Below are positions 11,377 through 59,827 of a DNA stretch of 64,000 nt, piece after piece. The position numbers and the translations under genes are program-made. The number at the start of each line of letters is the position of its first letter. Positions within the stretch are counted from its first letter, which is position 1. Below the pieces are notes generated by a model. The model made no database searches, had not been told where the DNA came from, and was given only the letters and a program-made list of their open reading frames with translations. This DNA comes from an uncultured Gemmatimonadales bacterium (GTDB lineage Bacteria; Gemmatimonadota; Gemmatimonadetes; Gemmatimonadales; GWC2-71-9): contig CAWJMT010000004.1 in NCBI GenBank assembly GCA_963844035.1, positions 352,001 through 416,000 of the forward strand, in the 5' to 3' direction.

Positions 11377-11456
11377 GGCCGACAAAGGCACACCCGGAGC
11401 GATCCGGGGCCGCAAAGCCAGGAGTCTCCCCCGGGGAGACCGTCCGGTTGCCGACG
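11377..11456 (+). promoter_or_regulatory. Cyclic di-GMP-I (GEMM-I) riboswitch
   Basis: AAGGCACACC-CGGA-GCGA-UCCG-GGGCCGCAAAGCC...GUCU...AGAC...GGUUGCCGA matches the GEMM-I pattern (GNRA-capped P2, GCAAAGCC junction, P3, GGUUGCCGA). Confidence 0.85.
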
Positions 11457-23107: not shown

Positions 23108-23290
23108 AGGCGAGCCGGTCTCCTGGCTCGAGGCAGCGCCATCGGCCTTCCCAGGGGGGCTATGCACATCCCCAGTGGCCAGACTTCGGTGGCGTCTTCC
23201 GCGGTGCTCCGCGGGCCTCTTACAGTGGCGGGGCCGCGCCGGTCTCACACCGGCTTCCGTATGGTCCGCCTGCGTCTGTTTTGGACTTCG
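23108..23290 (-). promoter_or_regulatory. Cobalamin riboswitch
   Basis: Minus strand reads GGAAGCCGGUG...CCGGCGCGGCCCCGCCACUGUAA...GCCACUGGG...GGGAAGGC...GAGCCAGGAGACCGGC (B12 box), upstream of the btu-like operon. Confidence 0.95.
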
Positions 23291-37216: not shown

Positions 37217-37245
37217 TTGACTCGACGATTGCCGAATGCAACATT
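37217..37245 (+). promoter_or_regulatory. Putative sigma70-like promoter of the orphan antisense sRNA
   Basis: TTGACT-17nt-AACATT, same geometry as the three sister copies. Confidence 0.55.
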
Positions 37246-37251
37246 GGACGC

Positions 37252-37326
37252 ACGTGACGGGTCTCCGCGTGCGAGCCGTTCGCTACGCAGACCGAAAGCC
37301 GGGGGGGTAACCCTCCGGCTTTCGTT
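37252..37326 (+). ncRNA. Putative anti-tRNA antisense sRNA, orphan copy (predicted target anticodon GUC)
   Basis: ACGUGACGGGUCUCCGCGU + ...UUCGCUACGC hairpin + GAAAGCCGG...CCGGCUUUC terminator; homologous to 38537, 57464 and 58269. Confidence 0.6.
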
Positions 37327-37390
37327 ATTGTGGCGACGCCGTGCGCGTGACCCGACCGCCTGACCGCCGTATTATCCGACCACCGCTCTA

Positions 37391-38128: not shown

Positions 38129-38160
38129 GGGGTGCCCTTAGGGTGAGCGGTGCGAATCAA

Positions 38161-38255
38161 ACTAGGCGCATAGACGCATAGACGCATAGGCACGCATAGA
38201 CGCGTAGGGACCGCCCGACCACCGCTTCGTCCAGCCCGGGGGTGAACCCACCCGG
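38161..38255. repeat. GACGCATA-type short tandem repeat plus REP-like CCCGGGGGTGAACCCACC element
   Basis: ACTAGGCGCATAGACGCATAGACGCATAGG...; related copy at 38631-38716. Confidence 0.65.
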
Positions 38256-38403
38256 ATTTTGTTGCGTGGGAAGGATCCGCTTCGCGCGCATTTCATCACC
38301 TGGATGACGCCGGGTGCGCACACAATGATCCCGCGGCTCGGTAGCACTTGTTGGGTGTCACGTCATGGCGCTTAGGCCATACCAAGGTCCGCAACCGCTC
38401 GGT

Positions 38404-38487
38404 GCCGGCGTGGCGGAATTGGTAGACGCGGATGCCCCACAAGCATCTGGGCGAAAGCCCGTGCGGGTTCGAATCCCGCCGCCGGCA
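38404..38487 (+). tRNA. Type II tRNA with tRNA-Leu body and CAC (Val) anticodon; C at position 33; CCA not encoded
   Basis: Acceptor GCCGGCG/CGCCGGC, D arm GCGGAAUUGGUAGACGC, anticodon arm GAUGC-CCCACAA-GCAUC, V arm GGGC-GAAA-GCCC, T arm GCGGG-UUCGAAU-CCCGC, A73. Confidence 0.85.
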
Positions 38488-38501
38488 CGGCCGTGCATCC
38501 C

Positions 38502-38530
38502 TTGTTCGAAGGAATGGGCGGCAGTATTTT
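38502..38530 (+). promoter_or_regulatory. Putative sigma70-like promoter of antisense sRNA 1
   Basis: TTGTTC-17nt-TATTTT, then 6 nt to the first complementary base (38537). Confidence 0.6.
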
Positions 38531-38536
38531 TGAGGC

Positions 38537-38610
38537 GCTTGTGGGGCATCCGCGTAGCCGATTTCGCTACGCCAAGAAAGCCGGGGGTGTAACCTCCGGC
38601 TTTCGCTTTT
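38537..38610 (+). ncRNA. Putative antisense sRNA against tRNA 38404-38487
   Basis: 38537-38555 is the exact reverse complement of 38426-38444; 38561-38573 pairs with 38407-38419 (2 G-U); ends in a GC hairpin plus U tract. Confidence 0.7.
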
Positions 38611-38630
38611 CCGGTTCAGCGTCGTGCCCT

Positions 38631-38716
38631 TACCCCGGGGTGCCGCCCCGGGGTGAACCCACCATCCTACTAGGCGCACAGGCGCAAAGACGCATAGGCG
38701 CATAGGACCGCCGACG
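38631..38716. repeat. REP-like palindrome plus GCGCATAG-type tandem repeat
   Basis: CCCCGGGG...CCCCGGGGTGAACCCACC followed by ACTAGGCGCACAGGCGCAAAGACGCATAGG. Confidence 0.6.
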
Positions 38717-38780
38717 CGCGGGCGGCGCGGCCGCCAGCGGTCCCCCTCCCCCCTCCCGCGTCCCTGCCGTACTCTTTTCC

Positions 38781-51519: not shown

Positions 51520-54432
51520 GTGGCCTTCGACCCACTCCCAGAGCAACGTGCCGCCATCGAGGCGCCACTCGGCCCCGTCCTCGTCATCGCGGGACCGGGC
51601 GCCGGCAAGACGTACTGCCTGGTCGCACGGATCAATCATCTGATCGCAGCGGGCACCGTTTCGCCCGAGCGCATTTGCGCCGTCACGTTCACCAACCGCG
51701 CCGCCGAGGAGATCGCGGCGCGCCTGAAGCACACCCTGGGGGACCGCGCCGAGGCGATCACCCGCGGCACGATCCACGCCCTGTGCCTCGGCCTGCTGCG
51801 CGAGCACGCCGAGCTGGCGGGGTTGCGTAAGGGGTTCGGGGTGGCCGACGACCCCTATCAAAAGGTGATCCTGAAGCGGCTGGGCGTGCCCCTGAGTCAT
51901 CGCGGGGGGCTGTTGAACCGGTTCAGTCGCCACCGCGCCCAGGACTACGAGCTGACGGCCGACGACATGCGGCTGTATCGCGAGTACGCCGCGTGGCTCG
52001 CGGGTCGCAACATGGTGGACTTCGACGACCTGGTCACCAAGGCGCGCGAGCTGCTGCGCACGCATTCGGGACTAGCCGAGCGCGTCGCCGCACGCTGGGA
52101 CTATCTCCTGGTGGACGAGTTCCAGGACGTCAATCCCGTGCAGTACGACCTGCTCAAGCGCCTGGCCACGCCGCACGACAACTTTTTCGCCGTCGGCGAC
52201 GACGAGCAGTCGATCTTCACGTGGACCGGGGCCGACCCGTACGTCCTCAAGCGCTTCAGCACCGAGTACGGGATCGAGCGGCCGATCGTACTCGACAAGA
52301 ACTGCCGCTGCTCGCGGCAGATCTTCGAGACTGCGCGGCGCGTGCTGGCGCAAAATCCCCAATTGTTCGACAAGCAGCTCACTGCCGAGCGGGAGTCGCG
52401 GTATGAAGTCACCGCGGTCGCCTTTCAGGACGAGCAGGACGAGGCGGCGTGGATCCTGGAAGACATCCAGAGCGACCGCGCGGCATCGGGATTGAGTTGG
52501 GGCGCCTATGCCCTGCTGTACCGCAAGCACAAGGTCGGTGACTACCTGGAAGGGCGTTTGTTAAAGGAGGGGATTCCCTGCCGCCTGGCGCGCGGCCGCT
52601 CGCTGGTCGAGGACGACGTCATCAAGTACGTCGTGGCGGCGTTACGCATCGTGCGCGACCCGGGGGACCCCGTCGCGCTCGAAGTGTTCGCGCGCTGCGT
52701 GCTCTCGGAGAACTTTCTCCAGGAAGTTCAGGGGGCGATCGGCGCCGCGGACGACTTCTTGGCGGCGGTGCGCGCGTTGGCGGGGCGCCGCCCCGCGACC
52801 GACCCCGATACGCGCAAGCTGTGGCGCTTGGTCTTCCAGGTCGAGAACTTCCACGCCTTGAGCCGCTCCCACGTCGCCCTGGCGCCGCTCGTGGACGAGA
52901 TCCTGTCGCAGAGTGTCGGGCCCTACAAGAACGTCCTGGAAGAGCGCCACGACGAGCTCAGCGATCCCGCCGATAGCCCCGAAGTCAGAGCCCTCGCCGA
53001 GCGACTTGCGCCGGCGCTCGCGGGAGAGCGCAGCGTCGCGATCTCACACCGCAGGGTGGGCTCGAGATCGCGTTGCGAGGCATGCTCGCGGCCGCCGGGT
53101 TCCGGCACGTTCGCTCGGACCTGAACGGCGATCTCGTCATTGGAGCGGGGGATGGAGGCGCGCGCGGGCTGGCGCTCACCCTGTTCAAGGCGCTCCAGCT
53201 GTTGCACGCCAAGGATCTGGACACCCCGCTCGAGCGCTACGTCACCTTTGACCTCGAGACCACGGACAACGACGTGGCCAGCTGCGGCGTGGTCGAGATC
53301 GGCGCTGCGCGCGTGGTGCGCGGTGAGATCGTGGCCCGGTTTCATACGCTGGTGCAGCCACACCGGCCGATCTCGCCCAAGGCGAGCGCGATCCACGGCT
53401 ACACCGATCGGGACCTGGCCGACGCACGCTCGTTCGCCGAGGTGTTCCCCGAATTCCGCGCGTTCGTGGGCGACGATCTCGTCATCGCGCACAACGGCCA
53501 GAAGTTCGACGTCCCGGTGCTGCGCCGTTTGGCCGCCGGTGCGGCCGGCGTGGACACCCTGGCCTTCTATGATACGCTCCCGCTAGCGCGGTCGCTTTCT
53601 AAGGACAGCGTCACGCAGGAGAACCTGGCGCATCGCTTCGGGATCGACGGCGGCAGGGCGCATCACGCGTTGGACGATGCCGTCACCCTGGCCGGGATCT
53701 ATCGCGAGCTCGAGCGCCAGCGCGGCGTGCGTGCACGTAAGGCCGTGCTCGTACACATCCTCGATTATCTTGGGCTCGCCCTCGCGCTCGAGGGTCCTGA
53801 CGACCCGAGCAGAAGCGAGCGGGGAGCGAGCGCTGCTGTTCGACATCGCGCGGGTCCGCACGCTGGGCCGCTATGGCGACGCGTTGCGGTTCTACGAAGT
53901 CGAGCGCGACCGCGCCGGCGCATCCTCCGGGCCAACACTAGACGAAGTGATCGAGCGGTTGGGTGGAGCCGCCATGATGACTCGCCTGCGCGCCGACCCG
54001 GCAGAGCGCTATCCGGCGGCGCTCGCTCGCCTGCGCGCCCTCATGGAGAGCAGCACCGAACGGACGTTAGCCGAGAGCATCGATCGCCTGCTCGAACGCA
54101 TCGCGCTCTCGACGTCTGATGGGGTCGAGGTCGCGCCCGACCGGGTCAATTTGCTCACACTGCATTCGACCAAGGGATTGGAGTTCTCGCGCGTCTACGT
54201 CGTTGGGGTGGAGGACTATCAGATCCCGGGATTCCACGAGACCAGGGAGCAGCGGGAGACTGATATCCAGGAGGCGCGCCGTCTCTTGTACGTCGGCATG
54301 ACTCGGGCGCGGGAGCGCCTGGTGTTGACCCGCGTCGAGCGGCGGTTCGGCATGGACTCAGGAGGCAGCGCGTTTCTCGAGGAGATGGGGCTCGAGGTTT
54401 CCACAGCCGACGCTTCATACAAGGAGAGTTGA
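51520..54432 (+). CDS. UvrD/PcrA-like SF1 helicase with inserted DEDDh (DnaQ-like) exonuclease domain, two frameshifts
   Basis: AGPGAGKT, DEFQD, VGDDEQSI; FDLETT, AHN..FD, HHALDDA; TLHSTKGLEF, LLYVGMTRAR. Confidence 0.9.
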
Positions 54433-55488
54433 TGAAGCGGCGGGATTTCATTCGGTCGGCGAGCATCGTCTCGGCGGGCTTGGCGCTCGGGAAGAAGGGG
54501 CAGCTCCTCGCCCGGCCCAAGAAGGCGAGCGGGTGGCGCACCTTCGAGGTCACGACGAACATCGAGGTTCTTAGCCCCAAGGGAACGACCCGCGTGTGGG
54601 TTCCGACCGGCCTCGTCGGCGACACCCCCTATCAGCGCACGCTCGCCAACCACTTCGATGCAGGGAATGGCTCGGCGCGCCTGGTTCAGCGTACTGCGGA
54701 TGCGCTAGGCCTGGTCGCCGCGGAGTTCCCCGAGGGCACGAAGCCCGCCCTGACCGTCACGAGCCGCATCGCGACCCGCGATCACGCGGTCGATCTCAAC
54801 GGCGCCGCGCGGCACCCAAGGCGAGAGTCGCGCGGACCTGGAGCACTTCCTGCGCCCCACCAAGCTCATACCCACCGACGGCATCGTGAGGATGACGGCG
54901 GGCGATATCACCAGGGGTGCGCGCACCGATCTCGACAAGGCGCGCGTGATCTACGAGTGGATCATCGACAACACCGCTCGCAATCCCAAGACGCGCGGCT
55001 GCGGACTGGGCGACATCCGGTTCATGCTCGAGACCGGGGACCTGACCGGCAAGTGCGCCGACCTGAATGCGTTGTTCGTGGGACTCGCGCGCGCGTCCGG
55101 CCTGCCGGCGCGCGATGTGTACGGCATCCGCGTCGCCAAGTCGGAGCTGGGCTACGCGAGCCTCGGACCCGCGACCGGGAAGATCACCAAGTCCCAGCAC
55201 TGCCGCGCCGAGGTGCACCTCGAGCAGTACGGCTGGGTCCCCGTCGATCCCGCCGATGTCCGCAAGGTGGTGCTCGAGGAGCCGCCCGGACACCGGCCGC
55301 TCGACGACGAGCTCGTGAAGCAGGCTCGCGCGCGGCTGTTCGGGTCGTGGGAGATGAACTGGATCGCCTACAACTTCGCGCACGACGTGGAACTGCCGGG
55401 CTCCTCGGGCAAGCCGGTCGGGTTCCTGATGTATCCGCAGGCCGAACGGCGGGCGGCGACGCTGATCCGTACGCATTAGATCACCTGA
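54432..55488 (+). CDS. Tat-exported transglutaminase-like domain protein, frameshifted
   Basis: MKRRDF twin-Arg signal; GKCADLN, QHCRAE, WVPVDP triad. Confidence 0.88.
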
Positions 55489-55515
55489 AGTCGATGCCTT
55501 CACCTGAGGACTCAT

Positions 55516-56043
55516 ATGCGTTCAATCAGACAGTTCGCCCTGGCGCTGCTCCCGTTGCCTATGCTACTCACCGTCGCCCCGCGCACGGTGAGCGACCTCC
55601 ACGAGGACGTCGTCGAGACGATCGCCGAGTTCAAGAAGAAGGATCCGGGGATGGAGAAGTTCTTTGCCGGCTCAGCCGGGTACGCGGTGTTCCCCACGGT
55701 GGGGAAGGGTGCGATCGGCATCGGCGGAGCGCACGGCACTGGCGAGCTGCTGGTGGGCGGCAAGGCGATCGGCAAGGTGACGCTCTCGCAGGTGACCGTC
55801 GGCTTCCAGCTCGGCGGACAGTCGTACTCGGAGGTCATCTTCTTCGAAAAGGAATCCCCGCTCCACGGCTTCAAGAAGGGCGACTTCGCCTTCGCGGCCG
55901 AGGCTTCGGCGGTTGCTCTGACCTCGGGCGTGTCGGCGAATGCCGCCTACCGCAACGGTGTCGCGGTGTTCACGATGGCGAAGGGCGGCCTGATGTACGA
56001 GGCGAGCATCGGCGGCCAGAAGTTTGACTACAAGCCGTACTAG
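55516..56043 (+). CDS. YSC84/SYLF lipid-binding domain protein
   Basis: AVFPTVGKG..GIGG..G.G, GFQLGGQ, GGLMYEASIGGQKF. Confidence 0.9.
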   Translation: MRSIRQFALALLPLPMLLTVAPRTVSDLHEDVVETIAEFKKKDPGMEKFFAGSAGYAVFPTVGKGAIGIGGAHGTGELLVGGKAIGKVTLSQVTVGFQLGGQSYSEVIFFEKESPLHGFKKGDFAFAAEASAVALTSGVSANAAYRNGVAVFTMAKGGLMYEASIGGQKFDYKPY

Positions 56044-56052
56044 CCAGTCGCC

Positions 56053-56302
56053 CTATTTCAGAACCTTCAGCCCCTTGAGTATCAGGATGAGCAGAACGGC
56101 CCCTGCCACCGCGATGAGCCAGCCCGCGATCGCACCCGACGTTCTCAGTCCGAGGAGCCCAGCCACCCAGAAGCCGAGAAACGACCCGATGATGCCGACG
56201 ACCACGTTGGCGACGATGCCCCATCTGGGCATTCGTCTTCATCACGATACTCGCCAACCACCCCACTACCCCGCCGATGATCAACGTTATGATGATACCC
56301 AT
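56053..56302 (-). CDS. GlsB/YeaQ/YmgE family small membrane protein (1-nt frameshift)
   Basis: MGIIITLIIGGVVGWLASIVMK..., NVVVGIIGS, AVAGAVLL. Confidence 0.85.
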
Positions 56303-56449
56303 GTTGTTCCTCCCTTTCGCGTACCTGCGGTCCGGGCGTGCGGGAACATCTGGGGTCAAACCTTCCCGCGAGCCGAGTGGGAGGTATTGGCCTTTAGGGA
56401 GGGAGGGCCTCATGATATCGAGCAATCACACTCATTCTCAAAGGGTCAT

Positions 56450-56977
56450 ATGAAGAGACTTGCCATCAGTGCCGTCGCGCTGCTCGTCGTGCTCTCGAGC
56501 GGAGCCCAGGGCCAGGACACGACCGGAGCTAAGGCTCACGGGACTCGACCGCAGCGAAGGCCCATCAGGACTCGAGCCGAGCCCCGACCGGGGCCGCGGC
56601 TACGGCCCCAGCGGGGAATCCGCTCAGCGCCACGTACTCGGTCCAGCTTGGCGATGTCGCCGCCGGCGTCTCTCTCCGAGATGCTCAAGCTGCGGACGGA
56701 CTTCGACCCCGCCATCATCAACTACGATCCGACAACTGGAACCGTAGACGTCGGGGTGTTCGGAGCACCGGCGGCCGGCAGCAAGACCGACCACGCGCGC
56801 ACGACCCTGGGCAAGTACTGGGATTTCATTCAAGCCGCGCATATCGCTTATGTCCAACGGCGTTACGGCGTGAAGCTGACGGTCAAGAACTACAAGCTCA
56901 TGTACTACGACCGCAGCGTTAAGGAGGGGCCGAAGCTGATTCTGCAGTTCGTGAATGGGCAATATTTGATACCGTAG
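56450..56977 (+). CDS. Secreted hypothetical protein
   Basis: Signal peptide MKRLAISAV...AQG; coding-like C-terminal part. Confidence 0.65.
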   Translation: MKRLAISAVALLVVLSSGAQGQDTTGAKAHGTRPQRRPIRTRAEPRPGPRLRPQRGIRSAPRTRSSLAMSPPASLSEMLKLRTDFDPAIINYDPTTGTVDVGVFGAPAAGSKTDHARTTLGKYWDFIQAAHIAYVQRRYGVKLTVKNYKLMYYDRSVKEGPKLILQFVNGQYLIP

Positions 56978-56981
56978 CGGT

Positions 56982-57132
56982 TTTTCCCCGGGCTGACAGC
57001 CCGGGCTCGGCGCAAGAGTGCGCCCTGTAAGGGCGCACCCCGGGCCGAGCGCGCCCTCTTAGGGCGCGGGTTCACGAAACCCAGGATCCCACCGAAGTCA
57101 TCCGTGAACCCCGGGCTTGTGCCCGGGGTCAG
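56982..57132. repeat. ~150 bp palindromic REP-like repeat, copy A
   Basis: Nested palindromes CCCGGGCT..AGCCCGGG, GTGCGCCCT..AGGGCGCAC, CCCCGGGC..GCCCGGGG; near-identical direct copy at 57959-58109. Confidence 0.85.
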
Positions 57133-57327
57133 TAGAGGCTCCTCCGTCTTTTACCAGCCGGGCGCGACATGTCGCGCCCCTACACCCGGCGTGGTTTCGT
57201 CCCCCCTCGCGTGTTTCGGGCACCTCAACCCTTCGGTATGGCTTGCATGGTCTCGACGTGGGCGGCAGCACGTATGGGATCACGCGTCTCGGCCTTCGGG
57301 ATTGCCTGGGTTCGCAGCCGGAAAGGT

Positions 57328-57411
57328 GCTGGTGTGGCGAAACAGGTAAACGCGGAGACCTCACACGTCTCTGGGCGAAAGCCCTTGTGGGTTCGAATCC
57401 CACCACCAGCA
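57328..57411 (+). tRNA. Type II tRNA with tRNA-Leu body and CAC (Val) anticodon; CCA not fully encoded
   Basis: Acceptor GCUGGUG/CACCAGC, D arm GCGAAACAGGUAAACGC, anticodon arm GAGAC-CUCACAC-GUCUC, V arm GGGC-GAAA-GCCC, T arm GUGGG-UUCGAAU-CCCAC, A73. Confidence 0.88.
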
Positions 57412-57428
57412 CCCTCCCCGCACCACTC

Positions 57429-57457
57429 TTGACTCGGCGATGAGCCGAGATGAAGTT
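57429..57457 (+). promoter_or_regulatory. Putative sigma70-like promoter of antisense sRNA 2
   Basis: TTGACT-17nt-GAAGTT, then 6 nt to the first complementary base (57464). Confidence 0.55.
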
Positions 57458-57463
57458 GTCACT

Positions 57464-57541
57464 ACGTGTGAGGTCTCCGCGTAGTGCGCCGTTCGCTACG
57501 CTGCTGAAGGCCGGAGGGGCAACCCTCCGGCTTTCGCATTT
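57464..57541 (+). ncRNA. Putative antisense sRNA against tRNA 57328-57411
   Basis: 57464-57482 is the exact reverse complement of 57350-57368; 57492-57501 pairs with 57332-57341 (2 G-U); GCCGGAGGG/CCCUCCGGC terminator. Confidence 0.7.
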
Positions 57542-57611
57542 CCGGGACGGAGGGAGTGCCTTCGTGATACCGCGGGGCATGGCCCCGCGGTAAACCCACC
57601 CGGACCAGGCT

Positions 57612-57947
57612 CGTCCGCGCGCACTTTGCGACCGTCAGCGAGCATCTTCCAATTGTCCGCGCGCACGTTGTGATCGTCAGCGGGCATCTTCCGACTGTCC
57701 GTGCACACTTTGCGACCGTCAGCGAGCATCTTGCAACTGTCCGCGCACGTCTTTCCGCTGTCAGCGCACACTTTGCGACTGTCCGCAGGCACTGGGGGAC
57801 TGTCCGCGCGTTCTTGGGCGTGATCCGGGGACACTTTGCAAACGACAGAGCGCACTGGGCGATTGTCCGAGCGCTTTGGGGGACGGTCCGGGGACATCGG
57901 GGGATCGTCAGCGCGTCTCTTGCAACAATCCGAGCATTCCTCGGGCC
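57612..57947. repeat. Degenerate 21-bp tandem repeat, 16 units
   Basis: Units such as CGTCCGCGCGCACTTTGCGAC and CGTCAGCGAGCATCTTCCAAT in strict 21-nt register; heptad peptides on both strands. Confidence 0.85.
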
Positions 57948-57958
57948 GAACCGCGTCC

Positions 57959-58109
57959 TTTTCCCGGGCTCATAGCCCGGGCTCGGCGCGAATGTGCGCC
58001 CTGTAAGGGCGCACCCCAGGCCGAGCGCGCCCTCTCAGGGCGCGGGTTCACGAAACCCAAGATCCCGCAGAAGTCATCCCGTGAACCCCGGGCTTGCGCC
58101 CGGGGTCAG
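57959..58109. repeat. ~150 bp palindromic REP-like repeat, copy B
   Basis: Direct repeat of 56982-57132. Confidence 0.85.
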
Positions 58110-58186
58110 CACAGACGGCGACGACGTGACAACCCGACCGCCCGACCGCCGCCTTTGTGGTTTGACCGCCTGACCGCCGCATCACA

Positions 58187-58216
58187 TTGTGGGTTCGAGT
58201 CCCACCACCAGCACCC
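58187..58216 (+). pseudogene. 3' fragment (T arm plus acceptor strand) of the CAC tRNA
   Basis: TTGTGGGTTCGAGTCCCACCACCAGCACCC, one mismatch to 57385-57414. Confidence 0.8.
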
Positions 58217-58268
58217 CCACTCTTAGGTGTCCATTGACTCGGCCGCGGCAATTCACGATGTTTTCACT

Positions 58269-58338
58269 GTGTGAGATCTCTGCGTAGCCAGTTTCGCTAC
58301 GCCAAGAAAGCCGGGGAGCGTAACGCTCTCCGGCTTTT
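58269..58338 (+). ncRNA. Putative antisense sRNA copy 3 (promoter TTGACT-17-GATGTT at 58234-58262)
   Basis: GUGUGAGAUCUCUGCGUAGC...GCUACGCCAAGAAAGCCGG...CCGGCUUUU. Confidence 0.65.
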
Positions 58339-58347
58339 GAGGCGTGT

Positions 58348-59827
58348 CTATGCCCGCCAACTCCGCGCAGCTCTCTCCACCAGCTTGCACCATCGCCCAG
58401 GTGTCGCGCTCGCAGTAGTCGAGCAGGTCCTGCCGCACGCGATCGCGCTCGTGCTGCGGGATCTTGTCCGCGACAAACAGGAGCCGCGCGATCTCGACGC
58501 TCGCGACGCCGGCCGTCCACGATCACGAGATCGTTGTAGGTCAGCTCGGGGACGAGGGGCGTGAGGATGTCCTTCAAGCTGAAGCTGCCCCTGAAATCGG
58601 GGTGGTAGACGCAGTTCTTCACGACCGGGATGCAGGTCGATCAGCTTCGCCTCGAGCGCCGTGAGCTCGGCGGCGAGGTCGGGCACCGCCCGTTGCAGCT
58701 CCCGGATGCGGGTCCTCTCGAATGGCGTGTACGTCGCCACCCGCTCGGCGTTGGCGGTCGCTCGCACCATCGCTTCAGCGAGCGGCGGGCGCGCGTCCTT
58801 CGGTCCTTCGGCGAGGAACGCCGCGTGAGTGTAGGTGCCGTCGGGCTGACGTTCGTGGTAGCTGAACTGAGCGGCGGCCTGCTGCCAGGGGGCCATGCCG
58901 GGCCAGACGGGGATCGCACGAGCGATGGTTTCGAAGTCGAGGAAGCCCAGGCGCCCCGCAAATGGCTCCAGCTCACTTCGCGAGCGTCGGCTCGACGATG
59001 ACGCGGTTCTCGGCCATCGCCTTGAGCTGGCGTTTCTGCGTGAAGTTGAGCTTCTCCTTCGCCGGCAACTGGCCGATCGAGGTGATGCCGCGCTCGAGAT
59101 AGGCCGACGGTCTTTTTCGGTCCCGACGCCGGCGAGGTTCCCGATATGGTCCGGCCCGTCGGGCCAGCAGCGCTTCAAGAACGGGCAGTCCCGCGGCTCG
59201 AAGCAGTGCGCGCCGATCGATACGTCGGGGAGCGGCCCGACGAGCATCGCCCGCTGCGCCGCGATCTCGTCCGGAACCGTGGGGAGCAGCGCGACTACCG
59301 CCCCGGTCACGTCGGTGCGGGCGAAGAGGTCGCCCGTGTCGGGATGCCGGAACTCCTTGTTGAGGTGCATCACCTCCGCGCTCGTGACGTTCACGCCGCA
59401 GGCCGCGGCGACGCGGGCCTGGATGGCGACGTCCGGGATGTGCTCGTCCTTCTGTGAGGTGGATGATTTCACCTCGGTCAGCCGGTAGCCGTCGTCCTGC
59501 TTCTCGAGCACGTCGATGGCGACGAACATGCCGTCGGCGATGAACGTCGCTTCGAAGACCGCGGGGGCGCCCGCATCAAGCGCCTTCTTCGTCGCCGCGA
59601 CGCGCTCGGCGCCCGCGTTGTGCGGCAGGTCGATCAGCACGCCACCCGGATATCGCGCGCGGGCCGCTTCGCCCACCTGGCGGCCCTGGTCGAAGAGGTC
59701 CTGTAGCACCTTGTCGGGCTGGAGCTCGAGCGGCGTCGGGCTCGTGCACTTCCCACCACAATTTCTTGTGGCATTGGAGGCCGGAGGTGAAGCGGGATTT
59801 GGAGAGGCGGGGGAGGGGCTGGGTCAT
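58348..59827 (-). CDS. DUF2779 domain protein (PD-(D/E)xK nuclease-like N-part plus RNase H-like C-part), frameshifted
   Basis: LSKSRF..GLQC.K.LW, DVL...EVKSST, C..PRDCPF..RCW, LDFET, QFSYH, GSFSLK, YCERDT. Confidence 0.85.

Follow-up and report, generated by a model that had tools for sequence, protein, structure and literature searches.

A leucine-like tRNA gene with a valine anticodon and an adjoining antisense unit: a candidate two-RNA module in Gemmatimonadota

Natural tRNAs in which the body and the anticodon disagree are rare, and they form the main evidence that mistranslation may be deliberate. The window analysed here, a 64-kb stretch of DNA from a soil Gemmatimonadales bacterium, carries a gene of this kind at 57328–57411 on the forward strand, in which the valine anticodon CAC sits on a class II, leucine-like scaffold. 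ARAGORN predicts only two tRNA genes in the whole window, at 38404–38488 and 57327–57414, and labels both of them 'tRNA-Val (cac)'. The Rfam tRNA family (RF00005, gathering score 29) matches the same two loci, on the forward strand, at 38404–38487 (56.1 bits; module 1) and at 57328–57411 (59.0 bits; module 2), and scanning 57150–57950 against Rfam at a permissive threshold returned nothing but tRNA, all other scores falling far below their own gathering scores.

Both copies fold with an acceptor stem of 7 bp, a D stem of 3 bp (GCG/CGC), a T stem of 5 bp closed by the loop UUCGAAU, and a 12-nt variable arm of 4 bp with a GAAA cap (GGGC-GAAA-GCCC). They have A14, A15, G18G19, U48 and A73 in common, along with the anticodon CAC and A37. 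The anticodon loop reads CU-CAC-AC in module 2, with U33, and CC-CAC-AA in module 1, with C33. When compared with the native tRNAs of the same genome, the best matches of the two copies are exclusively tRNA-Leu (0.70–0.76 identity), with tRNA-Leu(CAG) closest to module 1 at 0.76 and several tRNA-Leu closest to module 2 at 0.67–0.70, in line with the first-pass annotation, which had described a leucine scaffold with a long variable arm bearing CAC.

That annotation had suggested checking the host for ordinary valine tRNAs. The genome does encode a normal tRNA-Val set (UAC, CAC and GAC) together with a full tRNA-Leu set, and its native tRNA-Val(CAC) belongs to class I and is 74 nt long. The genome has one LeuRS gene (G000:C36:89755-92142), and no second LeuRS was found. 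Reassignment of GUG, which had also been raised, is contradicted by EF-Tu, whose 39 GTG codons, set against EF-Tu from other families of the phylum, stand opposite Val in 299 of 390 cells and opposite Leu in 13.

Each of the two tRNA-like genes is associated with a 19-nt, 100% complementary inverted repeat (38426–38444/38537–38555 in module 1 and 57350–57368/57464–57482 in module 2), confirming the antisense partners reported previously. The upstream arm covers the 3′ strand of the D stem, the 5′ strand of the anticodon stem and the anticodon loop, and the perfect antisense lies 92–95 nt downstream of this target segment, so that adjacent genes are found in which a predicted small RNA (sRNA) pairs specifically with the product of its neighbour, over 19 nt perfectly and extendable to 33 bp. 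Since the two repeat pairs differ in sequence and yet each is internally perfect, chance does not account for the pairing. The antisense gene is situated about 50 nt downstream of the tRNA gene on the same strand, and the predicted sRNA is about 80 nt long. The cofold ΔΔG of the heterodimer relative to the separately folded RNAs is −38.1 kcal/mol for module 1 and −24.9 kcal/mol for module 2.

The module 1 antisense unit (38502–38612, forward strand; 79.1 bits with R1, the covariance model used to locate antisense units) contains the promoter-like TTGTTC-17-TATTTT (38502–38530), the seed formed by the downstream arm of the repeat, a hairpin (GCGUAGC/GCUACGC) and a terminator stem (38576–38604) with a U-rich tail. 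The same arrangement is found in module 2 (57429–57543, forward strand; 65.6 bits), with TTGACT-17-GAAGTT (57429–57457), the seed, a hairpin and a terminator stem (57506–57535) that again has a U-rich tail. Two more antisense units in the window, and two intact copies on another contig of the genome, had been overlooked in the first-pass annotation. One is an orphan at 37217–37330 on the forward strand, with no tRNA upstream (R1 match 37245–37349, 55.2 bits), in which a promoter-like TTGACT (37217–37222), a 17-nt spacer and AACATT (37240–37245) precede a seed that starts at about 37252 and would pair with the loop CC-GUC-AC, followed by a hairpin and a terminator stem-loop. The other belongs to a degenerate third module (58187–58340, forward strand), whose 5′-truncated tRNA is reduced to the T arm and the 3′ acceptor strand (58187–58213); its antisense unit is intact (R1 match 58260–58364, 83.5 bits), with TTGACT-17-GATGTT (58234–58262), a seed that begins near 58268 and is predicted to pair with the loop CU-CAC-AC, a hairpin and a terminator. 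In total, the genome holds four intact tRNA-like copies, one of them with the anticodon UGC, and seven antisense units.

To place these loci in a wider family we used pattern scans; an earlier, generic DNA pattern proved too loose, returning 119 stretches mostly from unrelated phyla, and was superseded. The scans yielded 141 distinct antisense units, nearly all of them in Gemmatimonadota. Intact leucine-like tRNAs precede 71 of the 141, with the anticodons CUC, CGC, CAC, GUC, UUC or UGC, all six of which read GNN codons and come with C36 and A37; none of the 71 has a leucine anticodon (NAG or NAA). In this genome, GCG ranks first in codon usage, GTG sixth, GAG eighth and GAC ninth. The identity conflict between valine and leucine postulated at the outset holds as far as the leucine-type scaffold with CAC is concerned but does not hold as a one-off, because the same scaffold with alanine, glutamate and aspartate anticodons elsewhere shows that the scaffold is constant and the anticodon variable.

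Conversely, 58 of 73 matches to the tRNA pattern have, 40–87 nt downstream, an antisense of at least 10 nt over the whole anticodon loop, compared with 0 of 73 for the reverse-complement control and 0 of 5 for non-family tRNAs, and most of the remaining family matches have an interrupted antisense. Family tRNAs lacking an antisense are therefore rare, and antisense units lacking a tRNA are common: 67 of the 141 have no intact tRNA, 22 of these 67 keeping just the 3′ part of one and 46 keeping the promoter-like TTGAC. This excess could also stem from 5′-truncating decay of a repeat. The antisense had been cited earlier merely as an argument against sequencing error; it is the defining feature of the element. 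At an E-value of 1e-8 or better, 13 of the 71 other genomes searched from the same family contained matches; the two genomes searched from the same genus contained none, and a viral contig collection gave no match to the antisense pattern. The module is so far specific to Gemmatimonadota, in which it is patchily distributed.

Across 68 aligned modules, both the cloverleaf and the duplex between the tRNA and its antisense show compensatory change. In the cloverleaf, 98.5% of cells are paired and both partners vary in 10 of the 24 base pairs (117 cells), with support from covariation for the 7-bp acceptor stem as well as the 5-bp T stem; the 33-bp duplex is 96.1% paired, and 13 of its 33 pairs change on both sides (186 cells). 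For neither structure did any of 500 shuffles reach the observed covariation score, although shuffle statistics overstate independence because the aligned sequences are related, and slid controls for the cloverleaf pair at 35–57%. The tRNA fold is under selection. In all 68 modules the antisense matches positions 34 and 35 of the anticodon, which upholds the earlier view that CAC is not a read error. Within the duplex core (positions 27–38), the cells that depart from Watson-Crick pairing comprise 26 G.U and 2 A.C, an excess expected for RNA pairing of plus-strand transcripts. Over the whole duplex, when two fixed G.U columns are set aside, A.C cells (61) are at least as frequent as G.U cells (48), meaning that the RNA-specific signature is limited to the core and the D-arm part does not have it.

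The antisense unit looks like an independent sRNA gene, with a promoter-like TTGACN-17-GATGTT, a seed at the 5′ end, a hairpin and a terminator. In 60 of 68 modules the distance between TTGAC and the sRNA core is fixed (47–49 nt in 57 of the 60), and GATGTT or a close variant follows TTGAC after 17 nt; with this fixed spacing, the predicted start falls on the first complementary base. A consensus promoter scan of the window regions returned no site, the promoter-like hexamers lying below the scanner threshold, so the promoter claim stands on conservation in the family. A terminator scan gave no site at the module terminators, its two sites in the window regions lying elsewhere.

Which synthetase would charge these tRNAs can be approached through known identity elements. 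For E. coli LeuRS, the available part of the source lists A73, A15-U48, G18G19, A20a, U8:A14 and the T-loop tertiary partners as determinants, the anticodon not being among those listed (PMC9976931). At the level of sequence, these determinants are present in both window copies and in 66–68 of 68 family members (A73 in 67; A14 in 68; A15 in 66; G18G19 in 68; A20a in 67; U48, U54/C56/A58 and C2-G71 in 68 each), and it is at that level only that the tertiary hinge elements U8:A14, U54:A58, G18:U55 and G19-C56 are kept. ValRS determinants are given there as A35, C36 and A73 (PMC9976931), and all three occur in both window copies, so valine charging would be conceivable for the CAC members. The class I body of tRNA-Val (short variable loop, G20, G45) is not that of the window copies, and position 20 is U or C, never G, in 68 of 68 modules. 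More generally, ValRS, GluRS and AspRS are described as reading the anticodon (PMC9976931), and some members could therefore be cognately charged, at least partly. AlaRS recognises the G3:U70 pair according to the same text (PMC9976931); positions 3:70 are U-A in 66 modules and C-G in 2, so that the alanine-anticodon members (UGC and CGC) are without the AlaRS determinant. AspRS is stated to read G73 (PMC9976931), a position occupied by A73 in the family. Taken as identity elements, these features would make cognate charging implausible for part of the family.

Two features of the family bear on decoding. U33 is near-universal in tRNAs; the C33 that had been pointed out in one window copy recurs in 19 of 68 modules, the 38404 copy included, and would weaken decoding, which fits a non-translational role. 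Additionally, CCC rather than CCA follows A73, a feature conserved in 59 of 68.

We also inspected the surroundings of the modules. A conserved 5′ leader, 75–140 nt long across the family, precedes the tRNA-like gene; in module 1 it spans 38330–38403 and is homologous to the leaders of other copies (alignments A1 and A2), and in module 2 it spans 57253–57327 and contains a seed-like stretch (alignment A2), both on the forward strand. No supported consensus fold was found for the leader. The seed-like stretch spans the anticodon in 15 of the 68 modules, 11 of which carry CGC, and over the family as a whole it fails to follow changes of the anticodon. A longer acceptor stem formed by leader and trailer, seen in module 2, was discarded, as it is unconserved past U-1:A73 and G-2:C74 (alignment A2). 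By Pfam, the window, contig C27 and six loci of relatives have no conserved protein neighbour except DUF2779, which is found beside an antisense unit both in the window and in one of the relatives, and PADLOC returned only generic UvrD-type and SNF2-type helicase matches. No transposase or integrase lies beside the modules, and an integron cassette was ruled out, the integron integrase being on contig C10 and not on C4 or C27. Clusters of the ACCGCC repeat occur near four of the seven units (0.41 expected by chance), and the flanking repeat is REP-like, consists of three hairpins and occurs 10 times in the genome. In an empty-site comparison, one relative has an orthologue of the DUF4442 neighbour, and synteny is not shared there. 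A Y RNA-like mimic (YrlA with Rsr) was also considered and rejected: the genome, which is 84% complete, has no match to Ro/TROVE (PF05731), and the Y-RNA match over the T arm is weak at 23.9 bits.

The reading that we favour, and to which we give slightly less than an even chance, is that of a mis-sense tRNA chargeable by LeuRS and restrained by a cognate antisense sRNA, following the logic of toxin-antitoxin systems. One gene would encode a leucine-type class II tRNA with its anticodon altered so that it reads an abundant GNN codon, in this case GUG; the other would encode an sRNA with its own promoter-like element and terminator, complementary through its 5′ end to the loop, stem and D arm of its partner. 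When free, the tRNA would be charged by LeuRS, which is anticodon-blind in studied bacteria, and would insert leucine at valine codons here, or at alanine, glutamate or aspartate codons in the case of other members. Pairing with the sRNA would begin at the exposed anticodon loop and zip up to a duplex of about 33 bp, destroying the L-shape and blocking both charging and decoding, and a read-through transcript would inhibit itself likewise. The pair would in this way act as an RNA-only toxin-antitoxin or guarded-stress module. We infer from sequence features that the RNAs are transcribed and processed, that the tRNA is charged with leucine, decodes and harms the cell, and that the sRNA neutralises it. 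Harm would be suggested, indirectly, by how common the target codons are, by the surplus of antisense units without a tRNA and by the killing of E. coli by induced mis-sense allo-tRNAs (PMC5389517). Bolder, and in our estimation rather doubtful, is the suggestion that the module represents a new type of toxin-antitoxin or stress system built entirely of RNA, in which the toxin would be a purpose-built mis-sense tRNA that joins a leucine body to an anticodon for one of the most frequent GNN codons of the cell, the antitoxin an sRNA that unfolds the anticodon and D arms of this tRNA, and the anticodon would switch between lineages together with a co-evolving antidote.

Among the alternatives, it is unlikely, though not far-fetched, that the two RNAs form a non-decoding regulatory pair, the tRNA being a mimic (an uncharged-tRNA signal, a decoy for an enzyme or nuclease, or a scaffold) and the sRNA an anti-mimic or switch. 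The recurrent C33, the CCC terminus and the strong conservation of the long leader would suit a mimic, and irregular tRNAs that are charged yet unused in translation are on record in the available part of one study (PMC5389517); however, C36 and A37 are invariant and the anticodons are restricted to GNN-readers matching the most used codons, a pattern needed by a decoder and not by a mimic, all LeuRS determinants and the standard 7/5 acceptor/T arm are kept, and a Ro/TROVE partner was not found in the 84% complete genome. We consider it improbable that the sRNA instead displays a codon with its 5′ end to titrate the native tRNA of that anticodon, the leucine-like tRNA serving as a decoy or buffer. 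The complementarity to the partner, at 19–33 bp, tracks private stem sequence that the native tRNA does not share, and paralogous modules that share both a genome and an anticodon differ in their stems, a sign that pairing is specific to the partner. Such titration would nonetheless explain why the antisense, often with its TTGAC, persists where the tRNA is gone, and the module 2 seed, read by eye, could pair with the anticodon arm of native tRNA-Val(CAC) over about 10 contiguous positions, 3 of them as wobble pairs.

Patchy distribution, several and clustered copies per genome, the many 5′-truncated remnants, the enrichment of ACCGCC clusters and the A.C cells outside the duplex core would all be at home in a repeat, selfish or decaying, that descends from tRNA-Leu (a small mobile element carrying an inverted partial duplication, for instance); such a repeat would have no cellular function and would owe its covariation to DNA-level conversion between the arms. 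We hold this to be a poor prospect, given that compensatory changes extend to the anticodon, variable and T stems outside the inverted repeat, core mismatches are strongly biased to G.U, the spacing of the conserved promoter-like and terminator elements is fixed, the modules have neither a transposase nor an integrase beside them, and no match to the antisense pattern was found in the viral contigs. Least probable is that the gene encodes an ordinary, working tRNA whose Val and Leu identities conflict, whether as an extra tRNA-Val, a dual-charged tRNA or a sign of GUG reassignment: the ValRS determinants A35, C36 and A73 (PMC9976931, available part) would allow it, but a standard 74-nt tRNA-Val(CAC) and its UAC and GAC isoacceptors exist, GTG aligns with Val in EF-Tu, the same scaffold carries anticodons for three other amino acids and lacks G20, a search of two same-genus genomes did not find the module, and the antisense partner would be left unexplained.

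If the bolder suggestion is right, some bacteria would possess a switch for mistranslation across the proteome that works without a dedicated protein. The module may both deliver and restrain deliberate mistranslation, and with more than 100 copies across an understudied soil phylum, the family would provide a natural case in which an sRNA could control how much of a tRNA is available, a candidate for an addiction or stress module made of RNA alone and, in the mis-sense tRNA with its specific off-switch, a compact and directly testable pair of parts. It also carries a warning for annotation, since standard tools label its members tRNA-Val, tRNA-Ala, tRNA-Glu or tRNA-Asp, and members so labelled probably carry none of these four amino acids.

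The two-RNA module appears to be undescribed so far: a literature search, conducted mostly by titles and abstract openings, returned no tRNA gene paired with an antisense sRNA gene, nor was a toxin-antitoxin system with a mistranslating tRNA as toxin found described. Among known systems, the allo-tRNAs and other natural mis-sense or nonsense suppressor tRNAs of soil Acidobacteria (Mukai et al. 2017; PMC5389517) come closest; they likewise combine the body of one amino acid, serine, with an anticodon for the codons of others. According to the available part of that paper (PMC5389517), they are found in soil metagenomes, frequently as pseudogenes, and lie near toxin-antitoxin genes, mis-sense versions arrest and kill E. 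coli when induced, and the authors discuss a role as regulatory RNA. They have, as far as that part goes, 8/4 or 9/3 acceptor/T arms (a 12-bp branch) and serine identity, in contrast to the 7/5 arms and leucine-type body of the present family, and the word 'antisense' does not occur in the available text (PMC5389517), whereas a co-evolving antisense sRNA gene belongs to the family described here. With genuine tRNA-Leu the family shares the long variable arm, A73, A15-U48, G18G19, A20a, U8:A14 and the T-loop partners; it differs in its NNC anticodons with A37, never a leucine anticodon, in the C33 of 19 of 68 members, and in its conserved long leader and partner sRNA.

In type I toxin-antitoxin systems a protein toxin is countered by an antisense RNA, and in type VIII, of which CreTA and SdsR/RyeA are examples, both toxin and antitoxin are RNA. 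The present module resembles both types in that a small antisense RNA gene adjoins the gene with whose product RNA it pairs, and also in its partner-specific paralogues per genome, patchy distribution and frequent antitoxin-only remnants; it differs in that the part of the toxin would fall to a tRNA that causes mistranslation, toxicity and antitoxin lability being presumed. A further parallel is offered by RNA I and RNA II of ColE1, an antisense pair initiated at loops and transcribed from opposite strands of the same DNA. As there, an exposed 7-nt loop would meet a complementary single strand, and the pairing would spread and refold the target RNA; unlike RNA I, the antisense here is a separate, diverged gene on the same strand, which must co-evolve with its target.

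Two tRNA genes were called by ARAGORN in the 64-kb window, each as tRNA-Val (cac), at 38404–38488 and 57327–57414, and the Rfam tRNA model (gathering score 29) matched both on the forward strand, at 38404–38487 with 56.1 bits (module 1) and at 57328–57411 with 59.0 bits (module 2); by module we mean a leucine-like tRNA gene with its downstream antisense unit, a candidate sRNA gene. In both tRNAs the acceptor stem has 7 bp and the D stem 3 bp (GCG/CGC), the latter with A13.A22 or G13.A22. A14, A15, G18G19, U48 and A73 are all present, the variable arm is a 4-bp stem under a GAAA cap, and the T stem has 5 bp and closes the loop UUCGAAU. The anticodon loops differ: the 57328 copy reads CU-CAC-AC, whereas the 38404 copy reads CC-CAC-AA and hence has C33. 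This direct reading of the sequence bore out every anatomical claim of the first-pass annotation, which had described a valine anticodon on a leucine scaffold with a long variable arm. Among 68 distinct intact modules that we aligned, positions 74–76, just after A73, are CCC in 59/68, neither CCA nor random, and the base preceding position 1 is U in 58/68; the genome's ordinary tRNAs show no conserved trailer of the CCC kind.

Behind each window tRNA, 92–95 nt after the sense arm, inverted-repeat reading revealed a perfect 19-nt reverse complement, which takes in the 3' strand of the D stem, position 26, the anticodon-stem 5' strand, the whole anticodon loop and 1–2 bases more. The anticodon stems differ between the two tRNAs, and each antisense fits its own tRNA. 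Compared with the RNAs folded separately, cofolding of tRNA and antisense favoured the heterodimer by −38.1 kcal/mol in module 1 and −24.9 kcal/mol in module 2, and the same long helix forms in the minimum-energy fold of a read-through transcript. The layout of the antisense unit resembles that of a separate gene. The sRNA core is preceded by TTGAC, no more than 75 nt upstream, in 60/68 modules, at 47–49 nt in 57 of these 60, and 17 bases past TTGACN the family alignment has GATGTT (44), GATTTT (6) or a close variant. A transcript begun 6–8 nt past this hexamer would open at the first complementary base; downstream lie the hairpin GCGUAGC/GCUACGC and a stem-loop that is GC-rich and ends in a U-rich tail. 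A simple consensus scanner did not pass the hexamers, so our assignment of a putative promoter draws on their conservation. The spacer hairpin, present in many of the 68 members and missing from a whole subfamily, is less conserved than the hexamers.

Across the 68 aligned modules, both the cloverleaf and the tRNA:antisense duplex, which spans tRNA positions 7–41, covary. Cells are paired in 98.5% of cases in the cloverleaf and 96.1% in the duplex, with 10/24 and 13/33 pairs, and 117 and 186 cells, respectively, altered on both sides. The covariation score was attained in 0/500 shuffles for either structure, and slid controls pair at 35–57% (cloverleaf) and 28–47% (duplex), controls that overstate significance given the relatedness of the sequences, from which the structure itself was also taken. 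The antisense matches anticodon position 34 in 68/68 modules (one via G.U) and position 35 in 68/68 (U-A 31, G-C 20, A-U 17), and C33 is opposed by G in 19/19 cases. Counting non-Watson-Crick cells as a strand test, we found 26 G.U versus 2 A.C in the duplex core (positions 27–38), as expected of pairing plus-strand RNAs. Over the whole duplex, minus two fixed G.U columns, the counts were 48 G.U versus 61 A.C, and the D-arm part is therefore without an RNA-strand signature; that part of the antisense also serves as the hairpin of the sRNA itself.

We ran a DNA pattern, made for the conserved portion of the antisense unit, on three sequence collections. It matched 21 stretches from species-representative genomes, all but one on contigs labelled Gemmatimonad-something, at least 124 stretches from metagenome contigs and none from viral contigs. 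Including those of the window and of contig C27 of the source genome, this gives at least 154 units, at least 141 of them distinct. Among the matches listed, 71/141 distinct units have an intact long-arm tRNA upstream, with the anticodons CUC (22), CGC (19), CAC (18), GUC (8), UUC (3) and UGC (1); 67/141 have none despite at least 260 nt of upstream sequence, and in 3/141 the flank is too short to judge. The 67 tRNA-less units among these matches include 22 that retain only 3' parts of the tRNA, 21 that retain only the promoter-like element and 18 with neither. The converse scan, with a pattern for the tRNA 5' part, gave 73 matches, 58 of which have a Watson-Crick/G.U antisense of at least 10 nt over the entire anticodon loop, 40–87 nt downstream, against 0/73 in a reverse-complement control on the same stretch. 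Five of the 73 are ordinary tRNAs (Erwinia, Mesorhizobium, Deinococcus, an alphaproteobacterial MAG and an acidobacterial MAG), with antisense in 0/5, and duplex folding shows that the antisense is interrupted for most of the remaining family tRNAs. New anticodons from the tRNA 5' scan were GGC, GAC, AGC and one GGU; among the matches listed, every family anticodon save the single GGU has C36 followed by A37, and thus reads a GNN codon. In two related loci, L135 (about 80–250) and L273, some 45 nt or more are inserted within the T loop or T arm of the family tRNA; owing to its insertion the L135 tRNA received no ARAGORN call, and its downstream antisense still fits the anticodon perfectly.

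A covariance model of the antisense unit found seven units in the source genome. Three are on C27, a single one of which has no tRNA, and four are in the window, including one without a tRNA at 37245–37349 and one at 58260–58364 behind a tRNA remnant reduced to the T arm and the acceptor's 3' strand. When 150 further genomes of the phylum were searched, at E of 1e-8 or better, matches occurred in at least 13/71 genomes of the same family and in none of the 79 outside it; the two genomes of the same genus had no match at this threshold. As the model was built from one subfamily, this distribution is a lower bound. The units bunch two or three within a few kilobases, and in six loci of relatives the usual cluster combines one unit behind an intact tRNA with others that have no intact tRNA. 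Their neighbours, unrelated housekeeping or helicase genes, include no shared protein partner, and the genome's integron integrase lies on a contig other than those of the modules. A DUF2779 protein directly adjoins an antisense unit both in the window (58348–59709, reverse strand) and in a same-family relative (L342, 1141–3036, forward strand), which is probably shared synteny. Also in the window, a UvrD-type helicase (51520–54432, forward strand) is represented by N-terminal (51520–53124) and C-terminal (53677–54432) frames, with a DEDDh/RNase T exonuclease frame (53073–54119) overlapping between them; two ORFs that follow (54429–56977) had no Pfam or PADLOC match.

Several repeats accompany the modules. 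A 149-nt nested-hairpin element flanks module 2 (56985–57133 and about 57963–58110, copies 92% alike); its first 85 nt recur in eight further copies in the genome, on contigs C5, C21 and C31, and it is therefore a general REP-like repeat outside the module. Between module 2 and the degenerate module, a tandem array (57613–57810) can be counted as roughly 9.4 repeats of 21 nt or roughly 4 of 42 nt (GTCCGCGCGCACTTTGCGACT-like). Module 1 is flanked at 38160–38225 and 38666–38720 by GCATAGAC-like heptamer runs, then GGACCGCC, and in the relatives L126 and L131, antisense units have similar AGACGCA runs upstream. On the strand of the modules, ACCGCC motifs form clusters of three or four, which occur within 1.5 kb of 4/7 antisense units (contig C4, 389355–389409, 410137–410178 and 391266–391307; C27, 109548–109590), against 0.41 expected from 68 clusters genome-wide; in other genomes, similar TACCGCC runs come after modules. 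In related loci (for example L148, L172, L174, L182) conservation reaches about 140 nt upstream of the tRNA, and this outer region, some 140–75 nt before the gene, has a CGCG...CGCG inverted repeat and also a stretch readable as a 7-codon mini-frame (GTG/ATG, ATN, four codons of which the third is GCG or GCA, one codon, TGA); both window copies have diverged there. Elsewhere in the window, Rfam matched a cobalamin riboswitch (23118–23258, reverse strand, 59.7 bits) and a c-di-GMP-I-GGC riboswitch (11378–11456, forward strand, 59.6 bits, barely above its gathering score of 59).

The window spans positions 352001–416000 of contig C4. The source genome assembly (3.47 Mb, 39 contigs, 67% GC, rated 84% complete) gave 67 ARAGORN tRNA calls, among them the normal tRNA-Val set whose presence the first-pass annotation had left to be checked (UAC, a 74-nt CAC and GAC), and a complete leucine set (UAG twice, CAA, GAG twice, UAA and CAG); it has one LeuRS gene. 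Two further long-arm family tRNAs, at C27:106399 (CAC) and C27:109280 (UGC, alanine), share the leader and scaffold of the window copies and have their own matching antisense downstream. Over-long calls at C4:258731, C4:295294, C3:289541 and C31:135238 lie in coding-like sequence without any family feature. Contigs C5 and C21 share a tRNA cluster (Trp, Glu, Glu, Lys) and REP copies, suggesting assembly redundancy or a strain mixture. When the genome's EF-Tu is aligned to ten further EF-Tu genes, drawn from three other families in the phylum, its 39 GTG codons stand opposite Val in 299/390 cells and Leu in 13, the partner genes often having GTA, GTT or GTC at these sites, which speaks against a genome-wide reassignment of GUG, and GCG, GAG and GAC align mostly with Ala, Glu and Asp. 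Among 440,930 codons in long open frames, GCG ranks 1, GTG 6, GAG 8 and GAC 9, and the family's dominant anticodons correspond to the codons that this genome uses most for the respective amino acids.

The four family tRNAs of this genome are nearest to its own tRNA-Leu genes (0.70–0.76 identity). In E. coli, as excerpted from PMC9976931, leucine determinants are A73, A15-U48, G18G19, A20a, U8:A14 and D/T-loop tertiary pairs, and include neither the anticodon nor the variable arm; those for Ala are G3:U70, for Asp G73 with G34, U35, C36 and C38, for Glu U34, U35, C36 and A37, and for Val A35, C36 and A73, with G20 and G45 minor. Because each leucine element is retained in 66–68 of the 68 members, A73 is present in 67/68, and G3:U70 and G20 are absent, leucine charging is the simplest prediction for the family as a whole. 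Members with Val, Glu or Asp anticodons may also be charged in part with the cognate amino acid.

We tentatively favour, with slightly more doubt than belief, a mis-sense tRNA restrained by its own antisense sRNA in the logic of a toxin-antitoxin pair, in which we infer expression, processing, charging, decoding, toxicity and neutralisation. The tRNA fold is under selection on a leucine body with switched GNN anticodons, the antisense is partner-specific, co-evolves with its tRNA and is laid out like an independent sRNA, there is no protein partner, antisense-only remnants are common and tRNAs without antisense rare, and the distribution is patchy and clustered. Harm by such a tRNA is plausible, because mis-sense allo-tRNAs, when induced, arrest and kill E. 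coli, according to excerpts of PMC5389517. A non-decoding regulatory pair stays alive as an alternative because of C33 in 19/68 members and the conserved leader of 75–140 nt, which mis-sense decoding leaves unexplained. Other rivals are a codon-display sponge, a decaying selfish repeat and the plain dual-identity tRNA of the first-pass annotation, which leaves the antisense unexplained.

Neither the antisense unit nor the leader has a family in Rfam 15, and a full-text literature search, which surfaced mostly titles and abstracts, returned no tRNA gene paired with an antisense sRNA gene. The nearest described systems are allo-tRNAs, which differ from the present family in architecture and, in those sources, come without an antisense partner, and RNA-antitoxin systems, which, unlike the proposed module, are without a tRNA toxin.
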